Shown piece by piece: positions 3,951 through 55,605 of a stretch of DNA of 64,000 nt (within the stretch, counting starts at the first letter, position 1; every line of letters begins with the position of its first letter). The DNA comes from an uncultured Victivallaceae bacterium (lineage in GTDB: Bacteria > Verrucomicrobiota > Lentisphaeria > Victivallales > GWF2-50-93): NCBI GenBank assembly GCA_964636325.1, contig CAZWRV010000010.1, forward strand, positions 29,072 through 93,071, read 5' to 3'. Under the pieces are notes generated by a model. The model was not told the DNA's origin, searched no databases, and worked only from the letters and a program-made list of their open reading frames with translations. The translations under genes and the position numbers were made by a program.

Positions 3951-4086
3951 CTGGTTACCGGCCAGGTATTATTTCAAATATCGGCAATACTTCGCAGCGC
4001 AGTTCGATGAACTTCTCAAACCATTCCGTCTGCCGGTGCGCTTCCTTATAGGCAAGTCCCCATAATATTTCCTCAAAGGATTTTCA

Positions 4087-4135
4087 TTTCAGATTTCCTT
4101 GCGGTAAACTATTGTATGGCGCAGGAAATCTGAAA
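4087..4135. repeat. Short form of Rep-A: perfect 11-bp hairpin TCAGATTTCCT / AGGAAATCTGA
   Basis: Arms at 4089-4099 and 4123-4133 with a 23-nt loop. The hairpin ends 15 nt upstream of the TTG start of the GT4 gene. Confidence 0.7.
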
Positions 4136-4148
4136 AAGGTTTATTTTC

Positions 4149-5291
4149 TTGAAGATCTGCCATGTGATAACGCGGATGATAGTTGGCGGGGCGCAGGAGA
4201 ACACGCTTCTGACGCTGATCGGCCACATCAGGAACGGGCACGACGCGGTGCTTGTTACCGGGCCGTCGCCCGGCCCTGAGGGCGAGCTTCTGAAGAAGCG
4301 CGACGTTCCGGATCTTAAGACGGTTGTGAATCCGCATCTCGTCAGGGAGCTTAATCCAGTCGAAGATCTGAGGGCGTATTTCTCGCTGAAGAAATATTTC
4401 GCCGCGGAAAAGTTCGACGTCGTGCATACTCATAGTTCGAAGGCGGGGATCGTGGGAAGGTTCGCTGCGCGCGCCTCCGGTGTCCCGGTCGTCGTCCACA
4501 CGGTCCACGGCCAGGCGTTCCATCCCTATGAGGAGCCCTGGAAGAATTTCATGTACAAGACTGCGGAAAGGCTTGCCGCAAGGAAGTCCGACAGGATTTT
4601 CGCGGTCGCGCAGGCGATGATCGACCAGTGCGTAGCTGCGAATGTCGCAGGGCGCGAAAAGTACAAGCTAGTCTATAGCGGGATGGAGCTTGAAAACCTC
4701 CTCGAGGCGAAGCCGGACTGCGAACTTCGCAGGAAGCTCGGAATACCGGAAGGCGCGCCGGTTGTTGGTTCAATCGCAAGGCTTTTCCCGTTAAAAGGTT
4801 ACGAATATTTCGTCCCAGCGGCCGCGGAAATCGCGAAGTCGCATCCCGAGACATATTTCCTGATCCTCGGCGACGGGATCTGGATGGACAAGATCGCGAA
4901 GGAGGCAAAGGACTTGAAATTGAACTTCGTCTTCGCCGGCCTGGTGCCGCCTGGAGAAGTCTGCAGATATACGGCGTTGATGGACTTGCTCATGCACTTG
5001 TCGCTGCGCGAGGGGCTTCCGAGGGCGGTGGTGCAGGCGCTGGCGTCGGCGAAGCCGGCGATCGGCTTCGATCTCGACGGCACGCCCGAAGTGATACTCC
5101 ATGGTAAGACCGGGTTCATCGCAAGACCTGAGGACGCCAAAGAAGTTGCGAAATTCGCAGTCCGTCTGCTCGAGGATAAGAAGCTTGCAGCGGAGATGGG
5201 CGCGGCCGGCCGCAGGCTGGTCAAGGACAGGTTCGACTGGCGGACGATGGTGGGCGCCCTGGAGGAGGAATACCGACGCTTGCTCAGATGA
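4149..5291 (+). CDS. Glycosyltransferase family 4 (GT-B fold)
   Basis: The N-terminus MKICHVITRMIVGGAQEN is typical of GT4, and the C-terminal EGLPRAVVQALASAKPAI..G..E is the GT1/GT4 nucleotide-sugar motif. The TTG start is needed to include the conserved N-terminus. Confidence 0.85.
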   Translation: MKICHVITRMIVGGAQENTLLTLIGHIRNGHDAVLVTGPSPGPEGELLKKRDVPDLKTVVNPHLVRELNPVEDLRAYFSLKKYFAAEKFDVVHTHSSKAGIVGRFAARASGVPVVVHTVHGQAFHPYEEPWKNFMYKTAERLAARKSDRIFAVAQAMIDQCVAANVAGREKYKLVYSGMELENLLEAKPDCELRRKLGIPEGAPVVGSIARLFPLKGYEYFVPAAAEIAKSHPETYFLILGDGIWMDKIAKEAKDLKLNFVFAGLVPPGEVCRYTALMDLLMHLSLREGLPRAVVQALASAKPAIGFDLDGTPEVILHGKTGFIARPEDAKEVAKFAVRLLEDKKLAAEMGAAGRRLVKDRFDWRTMVGALEEEYRRLLR

Positions 5292-5384: not shown

Positions 5385-5642
5385 CTCGATGGAGGGCGGA
5401 ATTCTATTCCGCTGCGCGGCGGGAGTTCCCGCCATCGTGACGACGGTTGAATAGAATTCAACCATCCATCCGCCGATCGGCGGATATGAAAAGGACAATC
5501 AAGTTTCAGGAGTATTCATCTGTCCGCCTCAGCGGACAGTTTTGTCGACGTGAAACTCGATGGAGGGCGAAGCTGTGCTGAGCCGCAGTTGAGCTCCCGC
5601 CTTCGTGAAGAAACTACGGCGCGGCACGTGGCTCAACCCTCC
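5385..5642. repeat. Rep-F hairpin cluster (CTCGATGGAGGGCG units, GGAGGGCGAAGC..GCTGAGCCGC / GCTCAACCCTCC arms)
   Basis: CTCGATGGAGGGCG occurs at 5385 and 5556. Inverted pairs are 5391-5412 / 5449-5470 and 5562-5586 / 5619-5642. There are extra small palindromes (CCGCCGATCGGCGG, TGTCCGCCTCAGCGGACA). A related copy lies at 50786-50859. Confidence 0.7.
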
Positions 5643-5704
5643 AGAAGACGACAAAGTTAGGGGCAAAGCAACCGACAAAGATGCCCAAGCTTCGGGAGAC
5701 GCAC

Positions 5705-6151: not shown

Positions 6152-6276
6152 TTTCAGATTTCCTGGCCCAAGCCCTATGGAAAGCTTAAAAACGACTGGG
6201 AAATGCCCATGTGGCTTTTCAGAGCGGGGCGCCGGAAATCTGACCTGAAATTCCTTCCGGGGATTGGTATTTCACC
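6152..6276 (+). repeat. Rep-A element (~125 bp), copy A
   Basis: TTTCAGATTTCCTGG ... GCCGGAAATCTGA ... GAAATTCCTTCCGG..GGTATTTCACC. Starts 4 nt after the stop at 6148. Aligns along its full length with 10222-10350, 11101-11226 and, inverted, 45206-45336. Confidence 0.85.
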
Positions 6277-6532
6277 ACATTTTATACTCCTTTAGCCCAA
6301 GTTCCGCGGGCAAAAAAGTCGCAAAATAGTTTTCTTCTCGGGAATCGCCGCCAGCCATGCCGACATGATATATGCAAGTCCTTGATTATCTAAATGTCTA
6401 TTTTTTATGCGCGGAAGTTGGGCTAGCTATTGATTATACCATATTAAGTTGGATACTGAGCTTTTATTGAATCACCTTTCGCTATGATAAACAAGATTTA
6501 ATATGCGCAATATTGACCATAATATGGTATAG

Positions 6533-10222: not shown

Positions 10223-10350
10223 AATTCAGATTTTCTGACCCGCCCACAGTGAATAGCTTAAAAAAGGCTGTAAAATGTCCATGTGGCTTTTCAGGGCGGG
10301 GAGCCGGAAATCTGAACTGAAATACCTTCCGGGAGAGGGCGGTATTTCAT
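10222..10350 (+). repeat. Rep-A element, copy B
   Basis: AAATTCAGATTTTCTG ... AGCCGGAAATCTGA ... GAAATACCTTCCGGG..GGTATTTCAT. Its first base is the last base of the TGA stop at 10220-10222. Confidence 0.85.
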
Positions 10351-10437
10351 ATAGTATTCATTTCCCACGGAACTTGACGTCTGAATTCCGGCCAGAAAAA
10401 TAATTGAAAATTTTTTCAATTTTCTGCCAGAACCCCC

Positions 10438-10520: not shown

Positions 10521-11036
10521 ATGAAGAAGACTAATGGTCGCGGGTTCACACTCATTGAGCTCCTGGTCGTGATTGCGATTATCGCAATCCTGGCCGGAAT
10601 GCTTCTCCCTGCTCTGAGTGCCGCTCGTGAAAAGGCGCGCAGAATCAATTGTACGAACAACCTGAAGCAGATCGGCCTCGCCATCCGCATGTATTCGCAG
10701 GAATACGGCGAAAGGTTCCCGAATGCACCCGGCCGTTCCGGCATGGAAATGCTCCGCGCCGGCGGGTATCTTGAGAACGCCAAGATGTATACCTGCCCGT
10801 CCACAGTCGACACCATCACAGACGGCACGAACCTCCAGGTTTCTTCCGTGTCCTACATGTATGCTGCCGGCATGAACGAGTCGACATCGGTTGACAGCGC
10901 CGTCTCCAGGGACAACAACACGAACCATACCAAGTATGGCAACGTGCTCTTCGTCGACGGCCACGCCTCCGGCTACGCCGGCGCCAACTGGACCAACTCG
11001 GCCACATACCTCGGCTCATCTCTCTTCACATGGTAA
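10521..11036 (+). CDS. Prepilin-type N-terminal cleavage/methylation domain protein with H-X9-DG motif (DUF1559-like)
   Basis: [25 protein letters not shown] is the class III signal/methylation motif. The C-terminal [12 protein letters not shown] fits H-X9-DG exactly. This family is expanded in PVC bacteria. Confidence 0.9.
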
Positions 11037-11062
11037 TCTGAAGAGCGTTTGAACCCGCAGAA

Positions 11063-11091
11063 AGAGGGAAGAAATTCCCTCTTTTTTTTTG
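11063..11091 (+). terminator. Rho-independent terminator
   Basis: AGAGGGAA (11063-11070), GAAA loop, TTCCCTCT (11075-11082), then a T9 run. Confidence 0.7.
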
Positions 11092-11100
11092 TCTTTCCAG

Positions 11101-11226
11101 GATTCAGATTTCCTGGAGCGCCACCATGAAATGGTTTAAAGCGATGGGAAATGCACTTGTGGCTTTTCAGCGTTGGGCGCCGGAAATCTGAAACTGAAAT
11201 ACCTCCCCGGAGTCGGTATTTCACCG
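11101..11226 (+). repeat. Rep-A element, copy C
   Basis: GATTCAGATTTCCTGG ... GCCGGAAATCTGA ... GAAATACCTCCCCGG..GGTATTTCACC. Confidence 0.85.
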
Positions 11227-11322
11227 CATCCTTATTTTCACGGATCGGTGTATCTGTTATTGGAAAAAAACACTTTGCGCACAATCTTATAGAAAAATTC
11301 TGTGTTAGTTCTGCGGGGTGTC

Positions 11323-12577: not shown

Positions 12578-12706
12578 GGTGTCGGGTGTCAGTGTTCAGG
12601 TGTCAGCAAGAAGAAAACACATGTATAGTCTGAATTCGTGATTTTGAAATTGCTTCGAGTAAATATCCTATTTTTTTCTGACACCTGACACCCGAAACCT
12701 GATACC
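12578..12706. repeat. Rep-D element, copy 1 (GGTGTCAG-type long inverted repeat with AT-rich loop)
   Basis: Left arm GGTGTCGGGTGTCAGTGTTCAGGTGTCAG, right arm CTGACACCTGACACCCGAAACCTGATACC. Ends 50 nt upstream of ATG 12756. Second copy at 47558-47653. Confidence 0.8.
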
Positions 12707-18212: not shown

Positions 18213-18377
18213 AAATTCTGGTAGGAGCTCACAATAAAGCTAGTGTTGCTTCGCATAACATCGGGTTCGCCGGTATTGTTAAAATCCTATGGATGAGAAG
18301 ATTAGAAAACGCAAGGCTGCTTTCATGGCAGTCCCTTTCATAGCGGGCGGATCGGGAAATCTGAATACAGGCTAAGC

Positions 18378-19606: not shown

Positions 19607-19700
19607 AAAAGTAGTTTGCGACATCCCTGGCGCAAAAAACAGATCATGGCCACCCTCGTATGCGGAGTTCCGATCTTTGCGCTCGGAGATCGCAAGCTAC
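19607..19700 (+). repeat. Rep-E element, copy 2 (core only)
   Basis: AAAAGTAGTTTGCGACATCCCTGGCGCAAAAAAC...CCTCGTATGCGGAGTTCCGATCTTTGCGC..CGCAAGCTACT aligns with 612-705. Confidence 0.75.
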
Positions 19701-19783
19701 TTGCGCGTCTTGCTGCGAAACTACGAACGAGCGTGCTTAGGCGTTTTGTAATTTGCTCCACTCCCTATTGGAGTTCAAGGAGC

Positions 19784-21082: not shown

Positions 21083-21210
21083 ATATTCCCAAACGGATAC
21101 CAGGTGACGGATGCCAGATTTCAGATGGCGGATTTCAGATGGCGGATACCTGAAAACGGGTGAAAAAACATAAGATTGTCGATTTTGAGGCAGTTTCAAC
21201 CGGGCAGATT

Positions 21211-26838: not shown

Positions 26839-27026
26839 GTATGAATTCAGCAAACTACGCCCTTTTGCTGAATTCATACAGGAAGGAAAATGCAAAATCG
26901 TTCGTTTTTATGCCCAAAGCCGAGATTTTTCACGGTCCTCCACCCGTATTTGGCAGAAGCCATTTGAATTTTGCATTTTTCCCAGGTAAATATCCAGTGA
27001 AAGGGCGTAGCTCACTGAATATTTAC
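26839..27026. repeat. Composite of nested hairpin repeats (Rep-B at 26839-26879, an AAAATGCAAAAT palindrome pair, Rep-C at 26986-27026)
   Basis: GTATGAATTCAGCAAACTACGCCCTTTTGCTGAATTCATAC; GGAAAATGCAAAAT (~26886) pairs with AATTTTGCATTTTTCC (~26975); GTAAATATCCAGTGAAAGGGCGTAGCTCACTGAATATTTAC. Confidence 0.8.
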
Positions 27027-27953: not shown

Positions 27954-27994
27954 GTAAATATTCAGTGGAAGGGCTTAGCTCGCTGAATATTTGC
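27954..27994. repeat. Rep-C hairpin, copy 2
   Basis: GTAAATATTCAGTGGAAGGGCTTAGCTCGCTGAATATTTGC. Ends 9 nt before ATG 28004. Confidence 0.8.
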
Positions 27995-31057: not shown

Positions 31058-31325
31058 GCTGGTAGCTTGCGCACGCCGTGCGCAAATGGCAGACTCTGCA
31101 TATTAGGAATGCCTGCGTTTCGTCCGCCTAGGCGGGTTCTGTTTTTTGCGCGCAGCGCGCGCAAACTACTTTTTGGCAAATTCTTTTGTTATATTCCACC
31201 ATCAGGAACTAAGTTTTTCCCTGCGGGAAAAAGGCACCCTTACGGCGCGCAGGTAGTTTGCGCGCAACGCGCGCAAACTACTTTTGGTAAAAACGTTTTC
31301 CAAGTCGCACCGTAAGGGACTAATA
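31058..31325 (-). repeat. Rep-E element, copy 3 (about 1.5 units, inverted relative to copy 1), filling the gap between genes A and B
   Basis: GGTAGCTTGCGCACGCCGTGCGCAAA, GTTTTTTGCGCGCAGCGCGCGCAAACTACTTTTTGGCAAATTC, TTTTTCCCTGCGGGAAAAA, the perfect hairpin GTAGTTTGCGCGCAACGCGCGCAAACTAC (about 31252-31280), and CCGTAAGGGACTAA. Matches the reverse complement of 566-788. Confidence 0.8.
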
Positions 31326-39520: not shown

Positions 39521-39561
39521 GTATGAATCCAGCAAACTACGCCATTTTGCTGAATTCATAC
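39521..39561. repeat. Rep-B hairpin, copy 2
   Basis: GTATGAATCCAGCAAACTACGCCATTTTGCTGAATTCATAC. Confidence 0.8.
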
Positions 39562-43028: not shown

Positions 43029-43122
43029 CTTTCAGATTTTATAATCGGTATGAATGCTTGCTATGTAGGATATGGAACGGGGCGTCCCACACAGGCATGC
43101 CGTCAACCCATAAAATCTGAAT
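43029..43122 (+). repeat. Rep-A variant (TCAGATTTTAT ... ATAAAATCTGA inverted termini)
   Basis: Starts 2 nt after the rlmN stop. The termini are related to the Rep-A TCAGATTTCC/GGAAATCTGA, but the interior differs. Confidence 0.6.
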
Positions 43123-43278
43123 TGAAAATCCGCCTTGCGTCAGGAATTTTCCTCCGGTATTATGCCCACAACTTTTATTTTTGACGGGAGGCAGATATAA
43201 TACTATTCAAGCGCAAGGATTGTTTTTTAAATGCAACTGCGGAGTGAAATCAGTTTTTTGTAAAATGGATGGTAAGTC

Positions 43279-44141: not shown

Positions 44142-45056
44142 CTAGACTCCGGCCGGTTCGATGCAGCAGCCCTTTGCTTCGAGGAGGTACTGGACTCCGT
44201 TTTCGCCGGCGAGGTGGCCGGCGCCGACCGCGGCGAATACGCTTTCCCGGTGCATGCGTTCGAAAAGCCTGTCGCAGAAGATTTGGTTCCTGGCCGAGAG
44301 GAGTCTTTCCAGATATTTCTCCCTCAGATCCTCGGAGATGGAGCTTTGCCTGCCGAGGAAGCGCCGCATCATGGAGGGGATGTCATTCCGCATATAGTCT
44401 TCCAGGATAAGCCAGGTAGTCTTGTAGCCGTCCTCGGCCTCTGCGATGGCTTCCTTAAGAAGCGCGATCTGCTCGGGGATTGTGAACGACTCTAGCGTTC
44501 CGATCTGTTCCCGCGGGGTTTCGAGTCCGCGGACAGGCTTGCGGAGAAGCTTGGCCTTCCGGTAGAGGATCGTGTCGAGAGTGATGTCGTAATCCCTTTT
44601 CGGATATGAGATGAGCAGGAGGGCGGCCCAGGGTCTGCATCTGTCGAGGAAGTTTTCAGGAATCGGAACATCGAAGGATGCGGCGGCGGCGGCCAGCCTC
44701 GAGAAGAGTTCTGCTCCGATGACATCGCTCAGCGTCTCCCCATCCGGCAGACTCATGCCTCCCGAGAGTTCTGCCCTGTTTTGCGCGTCCGGCTCCATCT
44801 CGCAGCAGAATGCGTCGCATGAGTCAATGGCGTCCAAGACGGCCCGGGGTATCTCCTCGAACCTTCTGTCGGGGATGTGTATCGTCCCGAAAAGCCAGGA
44901 GGCTTTTCCTCCGAAGCCGACCTTCCAGAACAGCGGGTCGGAGTCGGCCCTTCCCTGTTCATCATATTCCATAATTTTCACCTGAGGCATCAATCCGGAT
45001 TTTCCCGACTCGCTTGCCATGAGCATGCAAAGAGCGATTGGAATTGTTCCTGTCAC
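44142..45056 (-). CDS. TraB/GumN family protein
   Basis: WLFGTIHI (GTIH motif), E-rich central block and the C-terminal AAVGAGHLAGENGV are hallmarks of TraB/GumN. Confidence 0.85.
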   Translation of the reverse strand: MTGTIPIALCMLMASESGKSGLMPQVKIMEYDEQGRADSDPLFWKVGFGGKASWLFGTIHIPDRRFEEIPRAVLDAIDSCDAFCCEMEPDAQNRAELSGGMSLPDGETLSDVIGAELFSRLAAAAASFDVPIPENFLDRCRPWAALLLISYPKRDYDITLDTILYRKAKLLRKPVRGLETPREQIGTLESFTIPEQIALLKEAIAEAEDGYKTTWLILEDYMRNDIPSMMRRFLGRQSSISEDLREKYLERLLSARNQIFCDRLFERMHRESVFAAVGAGHLAGENGVQYLLEAKGCCIEPAGV

Positions 45057-45084
45057 CTGTCAGTGGCGCGCGCCGGAAATCCGA

Positions 45085-45118
45085 ATATGAATTCAGCGAA
45101 AGTTTGCTGAATTCATAC
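45085..45118. repeat. Rep-B hairpin, copy 3
   Basis: ATATGAATTCAGCGAAAGTTTGCTGAATTCATAC, preceded by a partial Rep-A terminus GCCGGAAATCCGA (45072-45084). Confidence 0.75.
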
Positions 45119-45205
45119 GGTATTGGAGCTTGTTTTTGCCATAGTTAAAGCTAGATTTTAAGTTTTCCAAATCCAGACATCCTGATCCGTGGAAAATTAA
45201 AATGC

Positions 45206-45336
45206 GGTGAAATACCCGACCCCCCCCCGGAAGGTATTTCAGTTCAGATTTCCGGTGTCACGGCCTGGAAAGCCGCATGGGCATTTCCCAGCCGTTTTTG
45301 GGTTTTTCATAGTGGGCGGACCAGGAAATCTGAAAT
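45206..45336 (-). repeat. Rep-A element, copy D (inverted)
   Basis: GGTGAAATACCC..CCGGAAGGTATTTCAGTTCAGATTTCCGG ... CCAGGAAATCTGAAAT. Its reverse complement aligns with copies A-C. Ends 21 nt before ATG 45357. Confidence 0.85.
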
Positions 45337-45356
45337 TAATTCACGGTGCAGACGCC

Positions 45357-47557: not shown

Positions 47558-47653
47558 GGTGGAGTCCAGGTGTCAGTGTTCAGGTGTCAGGAGTATGAAA
47601 AAACTGTCATCTCTCGTTTTTTCTAATTTTGCTGAAACCTGACACCCGACACC
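47558..47653. repeat. Rep-D element, copy 2
   Basis: GGTGGAGTCCAGGTGTCAGTGTTCAGGTGTCAGG ... CTGAAACCTGACACCCGACACC with an AT-rich loop. Ends 94 nt upstream of ATG 47747. Confidence 0.8.
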
Positions 47654-50785: not shown

Positions 50786-50859
50786 GCGGTTGAGCACGGC
50801 TCAACCCTCCGCAGTTTGTTCATCTTCAGTGCGCGGAGGGCGAAGCCGGGCTGAGCCGC
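50786..50859. repeat. Rep-F hairpin, second locus
   Basis: GCGGTTGAGCACGGCTCAACCCTCCGC ... GCGGAGGGCGAAGCCGGGCTGAGCCGC (27-nt imperfect inverted arms). Related to 5562-5642 in the opposite arm order. Confidence 0.7.
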
Positions 50860-50893
50860 ATTCTGAGTTTAAATTATCTCAAAGGACTGACTT

Positions 50894-55111: not shown

Positions 55112-55152
55112 GTAAACATTCAGTGAAAGGGCGCAGTTCACTGAATATTTAC
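55112..55152. repeat. Rep-C hairpin, copy 3
   Basis: GTAAACATTCAGTGAAAGGGCGCAGTTCACTGAATATTTAC, starting 4 nt after the comEC stop. Confidence 0.8.
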
Positions 55153-55605
55153 CTGGGCTCCACCTATGAGGCCGTGAACGTCTGGATATTCTGCGTCGTA
55201 TGGCCGCTGTTCACAGTAATGCCCGTCGGAATAATCGCATGGCAGTTTTTCGTAATTCGGAAGCTGAGGAGCAAGGGCTAAAAAAAGACCGGATACTTCC
55301 TGATCCAGCCCTTGCAGTCACTGTCTGAACAAGCTGCGGAGCAATCAGCCCGACAGTATCCTTGCGAGCAGCACTATGACCAGCCCGCAAAACAGCAGGC
55401 TGATCACCTTCGATAAACCAGACTTCCGCCTGGCCATGTCGTCCGTCTTCAACCCCGTCACGAACTCGCCGAAGAACGGCCAGGCCGAGGCCAGCAGCAG
55501 TATGAACACGGGCAGCGAAGCCCACGAGTCGCAGGCGATCAGCGCCCAGACAAGCAGTCCGAGCGCAACAACGGCATACGCGGCTCAGGATGTCTGAAAT
55601 TTCCG

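Follow-up and report, generated by a model that had tools for sequence, protein, structure and literature searches.

Rep-A, a modular hairpin-forming intergenic repeat often placed just behind stop codons in a deep Lentisphaerota-like lineage

The 64,000-nt stretch of DNA analysed here (the window) contains a repeated two-hairpin element, Rep-A, which in several places begins only a few bases past a stop codon. This raises the question of what kind of element Rep-A is, how it came to lie in these positions and what it might do there. Copies in the window were delimited by a profile search together with the steps in contig depth seen in the source metagenome (window copies are labelled w, contigs or loci from other metagenomes L). 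Full-length copies were found at all four places where the first-pass annotation had put them, with a mean column identity of 80%. Counts of the component motifs in the window were compared with chance: the 13-nt arm motif TTCAGATTTCCKG gave 19 matches at ≤2 mismatches against 3.8 expected, a 25-nt internal box 4 against 0, and the hairpin-2 start CTGAAATACCTTCCGG 4 against 0.6. The length previously given for the unit, ~125 bp, proved too short; both the profile search and the depth steps yield ~165 nt, with ~35-40 nt more on the 3' side. Contigs of the source metagenome display sharp common boundaries, the 5' end lying at TTCAG (6152, 10225 and 45336/7) and the 3' end at ...GTCTG (45174). 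The flank consensus provides a lead that the ends may extend a few bases further, to TTAATTTCAGA ... TCTGAAATTAA, both being low-agreement consensuses.

The most complete copy, located at 45169-45337 on the minus strand between divergent genes, serves as the reference for the anatomy of the element. Its 5' arm (45334-45322, minus strand; TTCAGATTTCCTG, preceded by (TAAT)) leads into a variable core of ~65 nt containing a purine-rich box, TGGGAAATGCCCATGTGGCT (45321-45256, minus). The 3' arm, CCGGAAATCTGAA (45255-45243, minus), is an internal inverted copy of the 5' arm, and the two pair perfectly over 11-13 bp. Only 1-2 bases further on, hairpin 2 forms a stem of 8-9 bp, TGAAATACC ... GGTATTTCA (45241-45208, minus), and is followed by a conserved ~35-nt tail, CACCGCATTTTAATTTTCCACGGATCAGGATGTCTGAA (45207-45172, minus; end CAGGATGTCTGGA). 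With the tail end, CAGGAnnTCTGAA, the arm sequence occurs a third time, again inverted but imperfect. Read as its reverse complement, TTCAGACATCCTGATCCG, the tail end agrees with the 5' end at 14-15 of 18 positions, and the ends of the unit thus resemble terminal inverted repeats. The perfect partner of the 5' arm is the internal one, and several copies have no tail end; yet several have a minimum-energy fold in which 5' arm and tail are paired.

Two further full copies occupy 10225-10387 (+), 2 nt past the TGA of a CN-hydrolase gene, and 11103-11259 (+), 66 nt past the stop of a pilin-like gene and ~43 nt ahead of a PfkB-family gene. The latter was described as following a terminator, and a terminator-like hairpin does precede it at 11059-11086. 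The copy at 6153-6290 (+) lies in a convergent intergenic region, 4 nt past the TAG of a PCC-domain gene, and lacks the last part of the tail; it departs from the others at 6283 (a loose end), where other copies continue into the tail. A diverged variant with the architecture of the full copies is present at 43031-43171 (+), 3 nt past the TGA of rlmN, and has compensated arms (TTCAGATTTTAT / ATAAAATCTGAA; GAAAATCC / GGAATTTTC). The PCC-domain gene (formerly listed as 'PPC'), the CN hydrolase and rlmN were all identified by Pfam, and the gaps, given before as 0-4 nt, were measured as 4, 2 and 3 nt, respectively. In contrast, the reference copy, inverted at 45337, has no stop codon ahead of it and divergent genes on both sides.

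Partial forms are also present. A mini form at 4088-4134, which the profile search places at 4076-4120, consists of two arms around 21 nt (TTCAGATTTCCTT...CAGGAAATCTGAA), and only the 5' third is found at 18317-18365 (-), 12 nt past the TGA of a same-strand URO-D-like gene; these bear out the short forms suggested at 4087-4135 and ~18348-18372. The piece proposed at 45072-45084 exists, but its extent had been given too small, as a degenerate core covering profile positions 7-99 spans 45001-45094 (+). Where hairpin 2 would follow its 3' arm, another hairpin repeat stands instead (45098-45135), making a mosaic, BIME-like arrangement. The stretch 21114-21144, listed before as a partial member, does not belong to the family; the profile search returned no match there. 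A solo tail end, CGCGGCTCAGGATGTCTGAA, at 55579-55598 (+) has no counterpart in the first-pass annotation; it departs from the tail consensus at 2 positions, and 0 such matches are expected by chance.

Rep-A is not the only repeat in the window. Two tandem structured units of ~95 nt (5385-5480 and 5558-5650) lie upstream of the PCC-domain gene, with a related piece at 50835-50860; they have in common CTCGATGGAGGGCG...GAG(T/C)TCCCGCC(A/T)TCGTGA, while their inner helices differ and stay self-complementary. No Rfam match was obtained for these units, and their depth of 2787 against 16.8 in the source metagenome indicates a very high-copy repeat. A near-perfect hairpin repeat of 41 nt, GTAAATATTCAGTGAAAGGGCG.AG.TCACTGAATATTTAC, occurs at 26986-27026, 27954-27994 and 55112-55152, the last copy 3 nt past the stop of a ComEC-like gene; its stem contains TTCAG...CTGAA, like Rep-A. 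The hairpin repeat that forms the mosaic described above, GTATGAATTCAGCAAACTACGCC.TTTTGCTGAATTCATAC, is found at 26839-26879 and 39521-39561 in addition to 45098-45135. A family around TTTGCGCGCGGCGCGCGCAAACTACT (593-782, 19635-19702 and 31062-31323) has inverted arms of up to 73 nt (710-782 versus 31177-31249), and GGTGTCAGTGTTCAGGTGTCAG repeats are located at 12578-12706, as an inverted pair 59 nt apart, and at 47569-47604. Between 29337 and 39069, large proteins with GYF_2, DO-GTPase2, GAP1-N2 and GAP1-M domains, together with two large ORFs without Pfam match, form a cluster that looks like a GTPase-centred conflict/defence system.

The element is non-coding: indels between copies break the reading frames, and the longest translated frame, searched in the open antisense reading to catch spurious ORF calls on other copies, has no match among 5.8 billion proteins. 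An ATG-led frame of 23 codons, considered as a small peptide, is present in three copies; it was rejected because a frameshift breaks it in the fourth copy and the lake subfamily described below does not have it. At the gathering score, Rfam gives no match over the whole window; in E-value mode, the window and the lake copies give chance-level matches only, far below the cut-offs.

In the source hot-spring metagenome, the summed contig depth over the element is 300-680, compared with 16.5 for the genome and flanks, while other contigs with copies have a depth of 12-16. This suggests ~20-40 copies in the source genome, an estimate that assumes one genome. The 27-nt junction between 3' arm and hairpin 2 reaches a depth of ~1900, which points to further subfamilies that share the junction module. 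The nearest named homologues of the CN hydrolase and RlmN belong to Lentisphaerae, Lentisphaeria and Victivallales, at 42-54% identity, and N_methyl/DUF1559 pilin-like genes also occur in the window; judged by these gene affinities, the host is a deep Lentisphaerota-like lineage. The nearest RlmN homologues, 48-54% identical, are too distant for an intergenic comparison. The segment encoding the prepilin-type N-terminus of the pilin-like gene (10545-10590) matches contigs of many unrelated organisms in several metagenomes, in keeping with the large size of the DUF1559 / N_methyl families in PVC bacteria.

A search with the two-arm pattern revealed a homologous family in freshwater metagenomes, comprising 18 loci and ~14 distinct copies, with the same order of modules as in the window. 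Hairpin 2 of the lake family has a different sequence (GAAAATTCC ... GGAATTTT), and the lake tail, CATTATTATTTTCAGCGGATCAGGAACTCTGAATTT, matches the best window copy at 26 of 35 positions. The depth in a lake run, 1283-2805 against 17, suggests ~75-165 copies in the lake relative. A lake-type 5' half was found on a contig whose RlmN is only 52% identical to that of the window, which sets the two hosts far apart. Module by module, the hot-spring and lake families have an identity of 94% for the 5' arm and 84% for the 3' arm, 60% for the tail, 52% for hairpin 2 and 40% for the core. Variable positions in the hot-spring metagenome cluster in the core and the hairpin-2 loop, and within each genome the conserved modules are those conserved between the lineages. 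Such conserved modules around a drifting core are unlike free decay after insertion. The lake organism also has a different short repeat (L133, 379-444; depth 1467 versus 17-23).

Other searches did not extend the family. Viral contigs gave 0 matches, plasmids none for either subfamily, and a metagenome search with a 22-nt junction pattern 0. A 17-nt junction pattern retrieved 104 loci from a genome collection of 596 billion bases, all by chance, the pattern being too short. Literature searched by sequence returned unrelated primers only.

The most striking property of Rep-A is its notably strong stop-codon adjacency. We measured the gap from the same-strand upstream stop codon to TTCAG and compared it with a null model of uniform position and orientation in intergenic DNA (11% of the window, 48 genes). 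It was found that 7 of 21 copies start 1-6 nt past the stop of a same-strand, Pfam-verified gene (P about 1e-7): in addition to w6153, w10225 and w43031, with the gaps given above, these are L122 (1 nt, a DUF1559 pilin-like gene), L119 (1 nt, GATase_5), L113 (2 nt, a glycyl-radical enzyme) and L110 (6 nt, a glycosyltransferase). With w18365, at 12 nt behind the URO-D-like gene, 8 of 21 copies lie ≤12 nt past a same-strand stop codon. Gaps of 23-94 nt behind various upstream genes were measured for L129, L143, L140, w11103, L120 and L112. Among copies with readable context, ~12 of 15 are downstream of a same-strand gene (P = 0.018); three lie ahead of a divergent gene, towards its start, and convergent gaps hold several (w6152, L133 and L109). 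Downstream genes often follow the tail closely, at 0 nt in the case of a KdsB-like gene and at ~18-50 nt in others (RecX, response-regulator and others), so that many copies fill the intercistronic spacer. A lack of positional bias to gene ends had been named as the result that would speak for a decaying insertion; what we observe is a strong bias, in sense orientation, to gene 3' ends.

The same had been said of stems without compensatory substitutions. To assess covariation, the arm and hairpin-2 strands of 19 copies were joined by fixed linkers, giving 13 distinct rows; the strands were hand-picked from predicted helices and the copies are related. In this alignment, 92% of cells in stem positions are paired, and both-sided (compensatory) changes occur in 4 of 22 stem pairs, in 10 cells. 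In stem 1 these are position 10 (C-G, with U-A twice and U-G once) and position 11 (C-G, A-U), and in hairpin 2 the outer pair (A-U, G-C, G-U, U-A) and the third pair (U-A, A-U). The covariation score of 0.117 compares with 0.056 for shuffled alignments (0 of 500 reach 0.117) and ≤0.051 for slid controls. Covariation and conserved arms are, however, equally expected from a transposase or a single-stranded DNA intermediate alone. The mean fold energy is -46.7 kcal/mol for the sense and -40.7 kcal/mol for the antisense strand (Wilcoxon p about 0.001), an asymmetry driven by related lake copies with a G-U-rich inner hairpin and reversed in three singleton variants. Fold z-scores go down to -5.5. 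A conserved fold of the core was considered and rejected, as the two subfamilies pair the common GTGGCT box with different partners. No promoter was found to recur in the element.

Evidence of insertion comes from L105, a Logan contig of a closer relative with a CN hydrolase 65% identical to that of the window. The gene order is the same in both (a YfhO-like gene, a 131-aa ORF, the CN hydrolase and the pilin-like gene), as is a promoter-like TTGAAA-17-TA(G/C)AAT. The CN hydrolase and the pilin-like gene are separated by 100 nt in L105 and by 299 nt in the window, Rep-A being missing from L105. The junction reads TGA|TTTTCC in L105 and TGAAA[element]TTCC in the window, L105 being too diverged for a duplication to be read. 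Polymorphic empty sites, sought as joints skipping the element at three loci in four runs, were not detected. Further along L105, right past the terminator of its pilin-like gene, TGATTTCCGGCGAAGCCCATTCCCCACC (4636-4690) may be a reversed, diverged Rep-A core; this is also where the contig breaks off, as is usual at repeats. As had been noted before, no RAYT or transposase gene was seen in the window: Pfam identifies neither these nor an integrase among the ~40 window ORFs scanned, ~10 ORFs having no Pfam match.

These results fix Rep-A as a modular hairpin-forming intergenic repeat that, once inserted, is kept under constraint, an element of the same kind as REP/BIME, REPIN, Correia and SPRITE. 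The REP/BIME- or MITE-like class put forward in the first-pass annotation is upheld by the copy number, the sharp ends, the empty orthologous site, the distant homologous family, the covariation and the 3'-end bias. Our best reading, in which we place about even confidence, is that Rep-A is a non-coding, non-autonomous mosaic repeat of REP/BIME/MITE type that is transcribed along with its neighbours and forms a structured 3' UTR or a spacer between cistrons. The element would have been moved by an enzyme whose gene lies elsewhere in the genome: a cut-and-paste transposase for which the three arm copies are the recognition site, or an HUH enzyme that reads hairpins. That copies follow genes so closely on the 3' side and in sense orientation, often at 1-6 nt, suggests, from position only, that the element would be read through with the upstream gene. 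On the mRNA, the long stem and hairpin 2 would form a structured 3' UTR or intercistronic block, which might bar 3' exonucleases or supply a processing site. Where the stem starts less than ~15 nt past the stop, it may hinder the terminating ribosome, as E. coli REPs do. A role as 3' UTR is doubtful for two copies, a full one located between divergent genes and another that stands behind a strong terminator.

The closest parallel for such a role is offered by the REP/BIMEs of enterobacteria and pseudomonads, which are likewise high-copy extragenic hairpin repeats with mosaic modules, mostly located in transcribed 3' regions and in many cases ≤15-20 nt from the upstream stop, as Rep-A is. REPs also stabilise upstream mRNA. 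With an 11-13-bp stem placed 1-6 nt past the stop, inside the mRNA channel of the terminating ribosome, the REP mechanism would by analogy be the most economical guess. According to Liang, Rudd and Deutscher (2015), as related in PMC12306157, a sizeable share of E. coli REPs is found at a distance of 1-20 nt from the end of an ORF, and translation of the upstream gene is reduced only by REPs <16 nt from the stop. Rep-A nevertheless differs from REPs in several respects. The unit is ~165 nt long, compared with 20-40 nt for a REP; its arms (13-18 nt) are not self-complementary, stand ~65 nt apart and have no GTAG head; no RAYT gene was seen in the window; and the host phylum has no described family in the searchable literature. 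Correia elements (NEMIS) of Neisseria are similar in size (100-160 bp), inverted ends, dozens to hundreds of copies and TA flanks in some copies, and are co-transcribed with their neighbours; by analogy, the long stem of Rep-A is a plausible RNase III substrate. There is no sequence similarity between the two, and Correia ends are 26 bp long with a clear TA duplication. We know of no comparable stop-codon adjacency for Correia.

The main rival, possible but in our judgement rather unlikely, is a purely selfish MITE without a host role, whose inverted terminal motif is read by a cut-and-paste transposase from elsewhere. It would prefer an A/T-rich, stop-like target (TRR then T), and the stop pattern would arise because only insertions just outside genes survive. 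The ends that resemble terminal inverted repeats speak for this, as do the loose-end flank consensus, the empty site in L105 and the occurrence of truncated copies and fragments, and Rep-A shares with MITEs its size of less than ~500 bp, its non-coding nature and its multiple copies. The flank 5' of TTCAG is mostly AAT, AGT or GAT, and TGA(A/T) is found ≤12 nt upstream in 8 of 24 copies. TA stands on both sides of the element in L112 and L131, which also favours a transposase; the other copies differ, and no consistent target-site duplication emerged across the copies compared. Identical 160-nt elements in different samples (L131, 1791-1948, and L135, 4-161), whose right flanks differ after TCTGAATTT, would likewise be expected from a mobile element; they reflect a very recent copying event between two loci, or else an artefact of assembly. 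No IS sharing the ends of Rep-A was found in the window or the fetched loci, nor among plasmids and viral contigs. The pattern of change also speaks against pure selfishness: copies only ~80% alike have kept arms, hairpin-2 stems and tail intact while core and loops drift, unlike neutral decay. The TAG-adjacent cases, moreover, do not suit a TGA(W) target.

The flanks raise a further reading, doubtful in our view, in which Rep-A would be a mobile '3'-end module', either targeted to stop codons or supplying one itself. A 5' flank of GTGAT(T)AAT is shared by w45336 and L131, which are from different hosts, and by two loose-end consensuses. In four cases the TGA of the gene itself stands at the place of the flank motif, whereas three TAG cases do not fit. 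As a lead, the motif is either a stop-codon-like target or a sign of an element bringing a stop codon. Two frames of this 5' extension contain a stop codon (TGA, TAA), and it is exactly at this place that several upstream ORFs terminate; each insertion would then be a ready-made structured 3' UTR coupling translation termination to mRNA fate. The driver would be an undescribed mobilising enzyme, possibly common to the other TTCAG...CTGAA hairpin repeats of the genome.

Unlikely, too, is movement of a REPIN- or PATE-like element as single-stranded DNA by an HUH enzyme of IS200/IS605 or RAYT type. Such an enzyme would read the hairpins of a single strand, and the element would go in on the 3' side of a short target, for example (G)TGAT. 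ISDra2 inserts 3' of TTGAT, which makes the recurrent GTGAT(T)AAT flank a lead in this direction; the motif is weak, with an agreement of 0.42-0.5 in the loose-end consensus. An HUH enzyme would also agree with our finding no target-site duplication, with hairpins that covary and fold better on one strand, and with 3' truncations outnumbering 5' truncations. Like REPINs with their RAYT, Rep-A has two inverted motif copies that form a long hairpin as the replicating unit, with stems conserved and a variable loop, but it goes beyond REPINs in having the arm a third time, hairpin 2 and the conserved tail of 35 nt. Like IS200/IS605-derived PATEs, it is non-autonomous, with subterminal one-strand hairpins, no evident duplication and a possible fixed 5' flank. 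However, IS200/IS605-type elements and PATEs have no terminal inverted repeats, which Rep-A seems to have; REPs are 20-40-nt palindromes, often with a 5' GTAG, and the arms of Rep-A are not self-palindromic; and no Y1 (TnpA) or RAYT gene was found in the window.

We give as little weight to the proposal that hairpin 2, with an A-tract, a G+C-rich stem-loop and a U-tract, is a weak bidirectional intrinsic terminator, which would make Rep-A a mobile terminator cassette like the pneumococcal SPRITE. Hairpin 2 can be written as GAAAUACC and GGUAUUUC around a G+C-rich loop/stem, or as GAAAAUUCCCC..GGGGUGGAAUUUU, followed by a U-rich tail, and several copies occupy convergent gaps (w6152, L133, L109). 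SPRITE sets a precedent, as it has a terminator-like hairpin, and such elements cluster and insert beside one another (PMC10969869). The SPRITE, BOX and RUP repeats of Streptococcus pneumoniae are, like Rep-A, modular small repeats with stable RNA folds; there is no similarity in sequence, and hairpin 2 of Rep-A fails a simple terminator test. A terminator scan found no canonical terminator-like site inside any copy, and the terminator role suggested in the first-pass annotation is accordingly not borne out. The U-rich run begins 6-8 nt past the stem, one copy already stands behind a strong terminator, and many copies lie between tight same-strand genes, so that a terminator would shut off the gene behind it.

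That Rep-A is a family of small-RNA genes, also raised earlier, with transcription of their own and action in trans, is very improbable. The stable folds and the conserved single-stranded boxes (TGGRAAA..TGTGGCT and the tail) would suit such genes. With starts 1-6 nt past stop codons there is, however, no room for a promoter, and no promoter-like site recurs ahead of the element; the core, where a seed site would be expected, is the least conserved part, and Rfam has no match. We attach next to no probability to an integron attC or other cassette recombination site, which the same-orientation position directly behind ORFs and the two copies flanking the pilin-like gene 876 nt apart bring to mind, or to a short protein-coding gene: the attC reading was rejected because RYYYAAC / GTTRRRY core sites are absent from the alignment and the flanked genes are housekeeping genes with synteny conserved with and without the element (nor is there an integrase in the window), and the broken frames and unmatched translation speak against a coding gene.

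Rep-A, read as a co-transcribed mosaic repeat, is thus an ordinary kind of element in a poorly studied phylum and not a new type of system. Since it fails the strict definition of a REP and agrees only in part with that of a MITE, we file it as a new family of a known kind, outside the named families. Repeats of this sort break short-read assemblies, as seen from Logan contigs that end inside copies, and a family profile would aid annotation as well as binning. Should the arms turn out to be recognised by a transposase, its identification would be the next task. Rep-A adds a well-defined intergenic repeat family to the Lentisphaerota (PVC group), for which none is described in the searchable literature. 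A hairpin repeat a few bases past the stop codon, known from the REPs of E. coli, is thereby seen again in a distant lineage, in a repeat of unrelated sequence, which suggests that this placement is a general solution or a general insertion bias and not an enterobacterial oddity.
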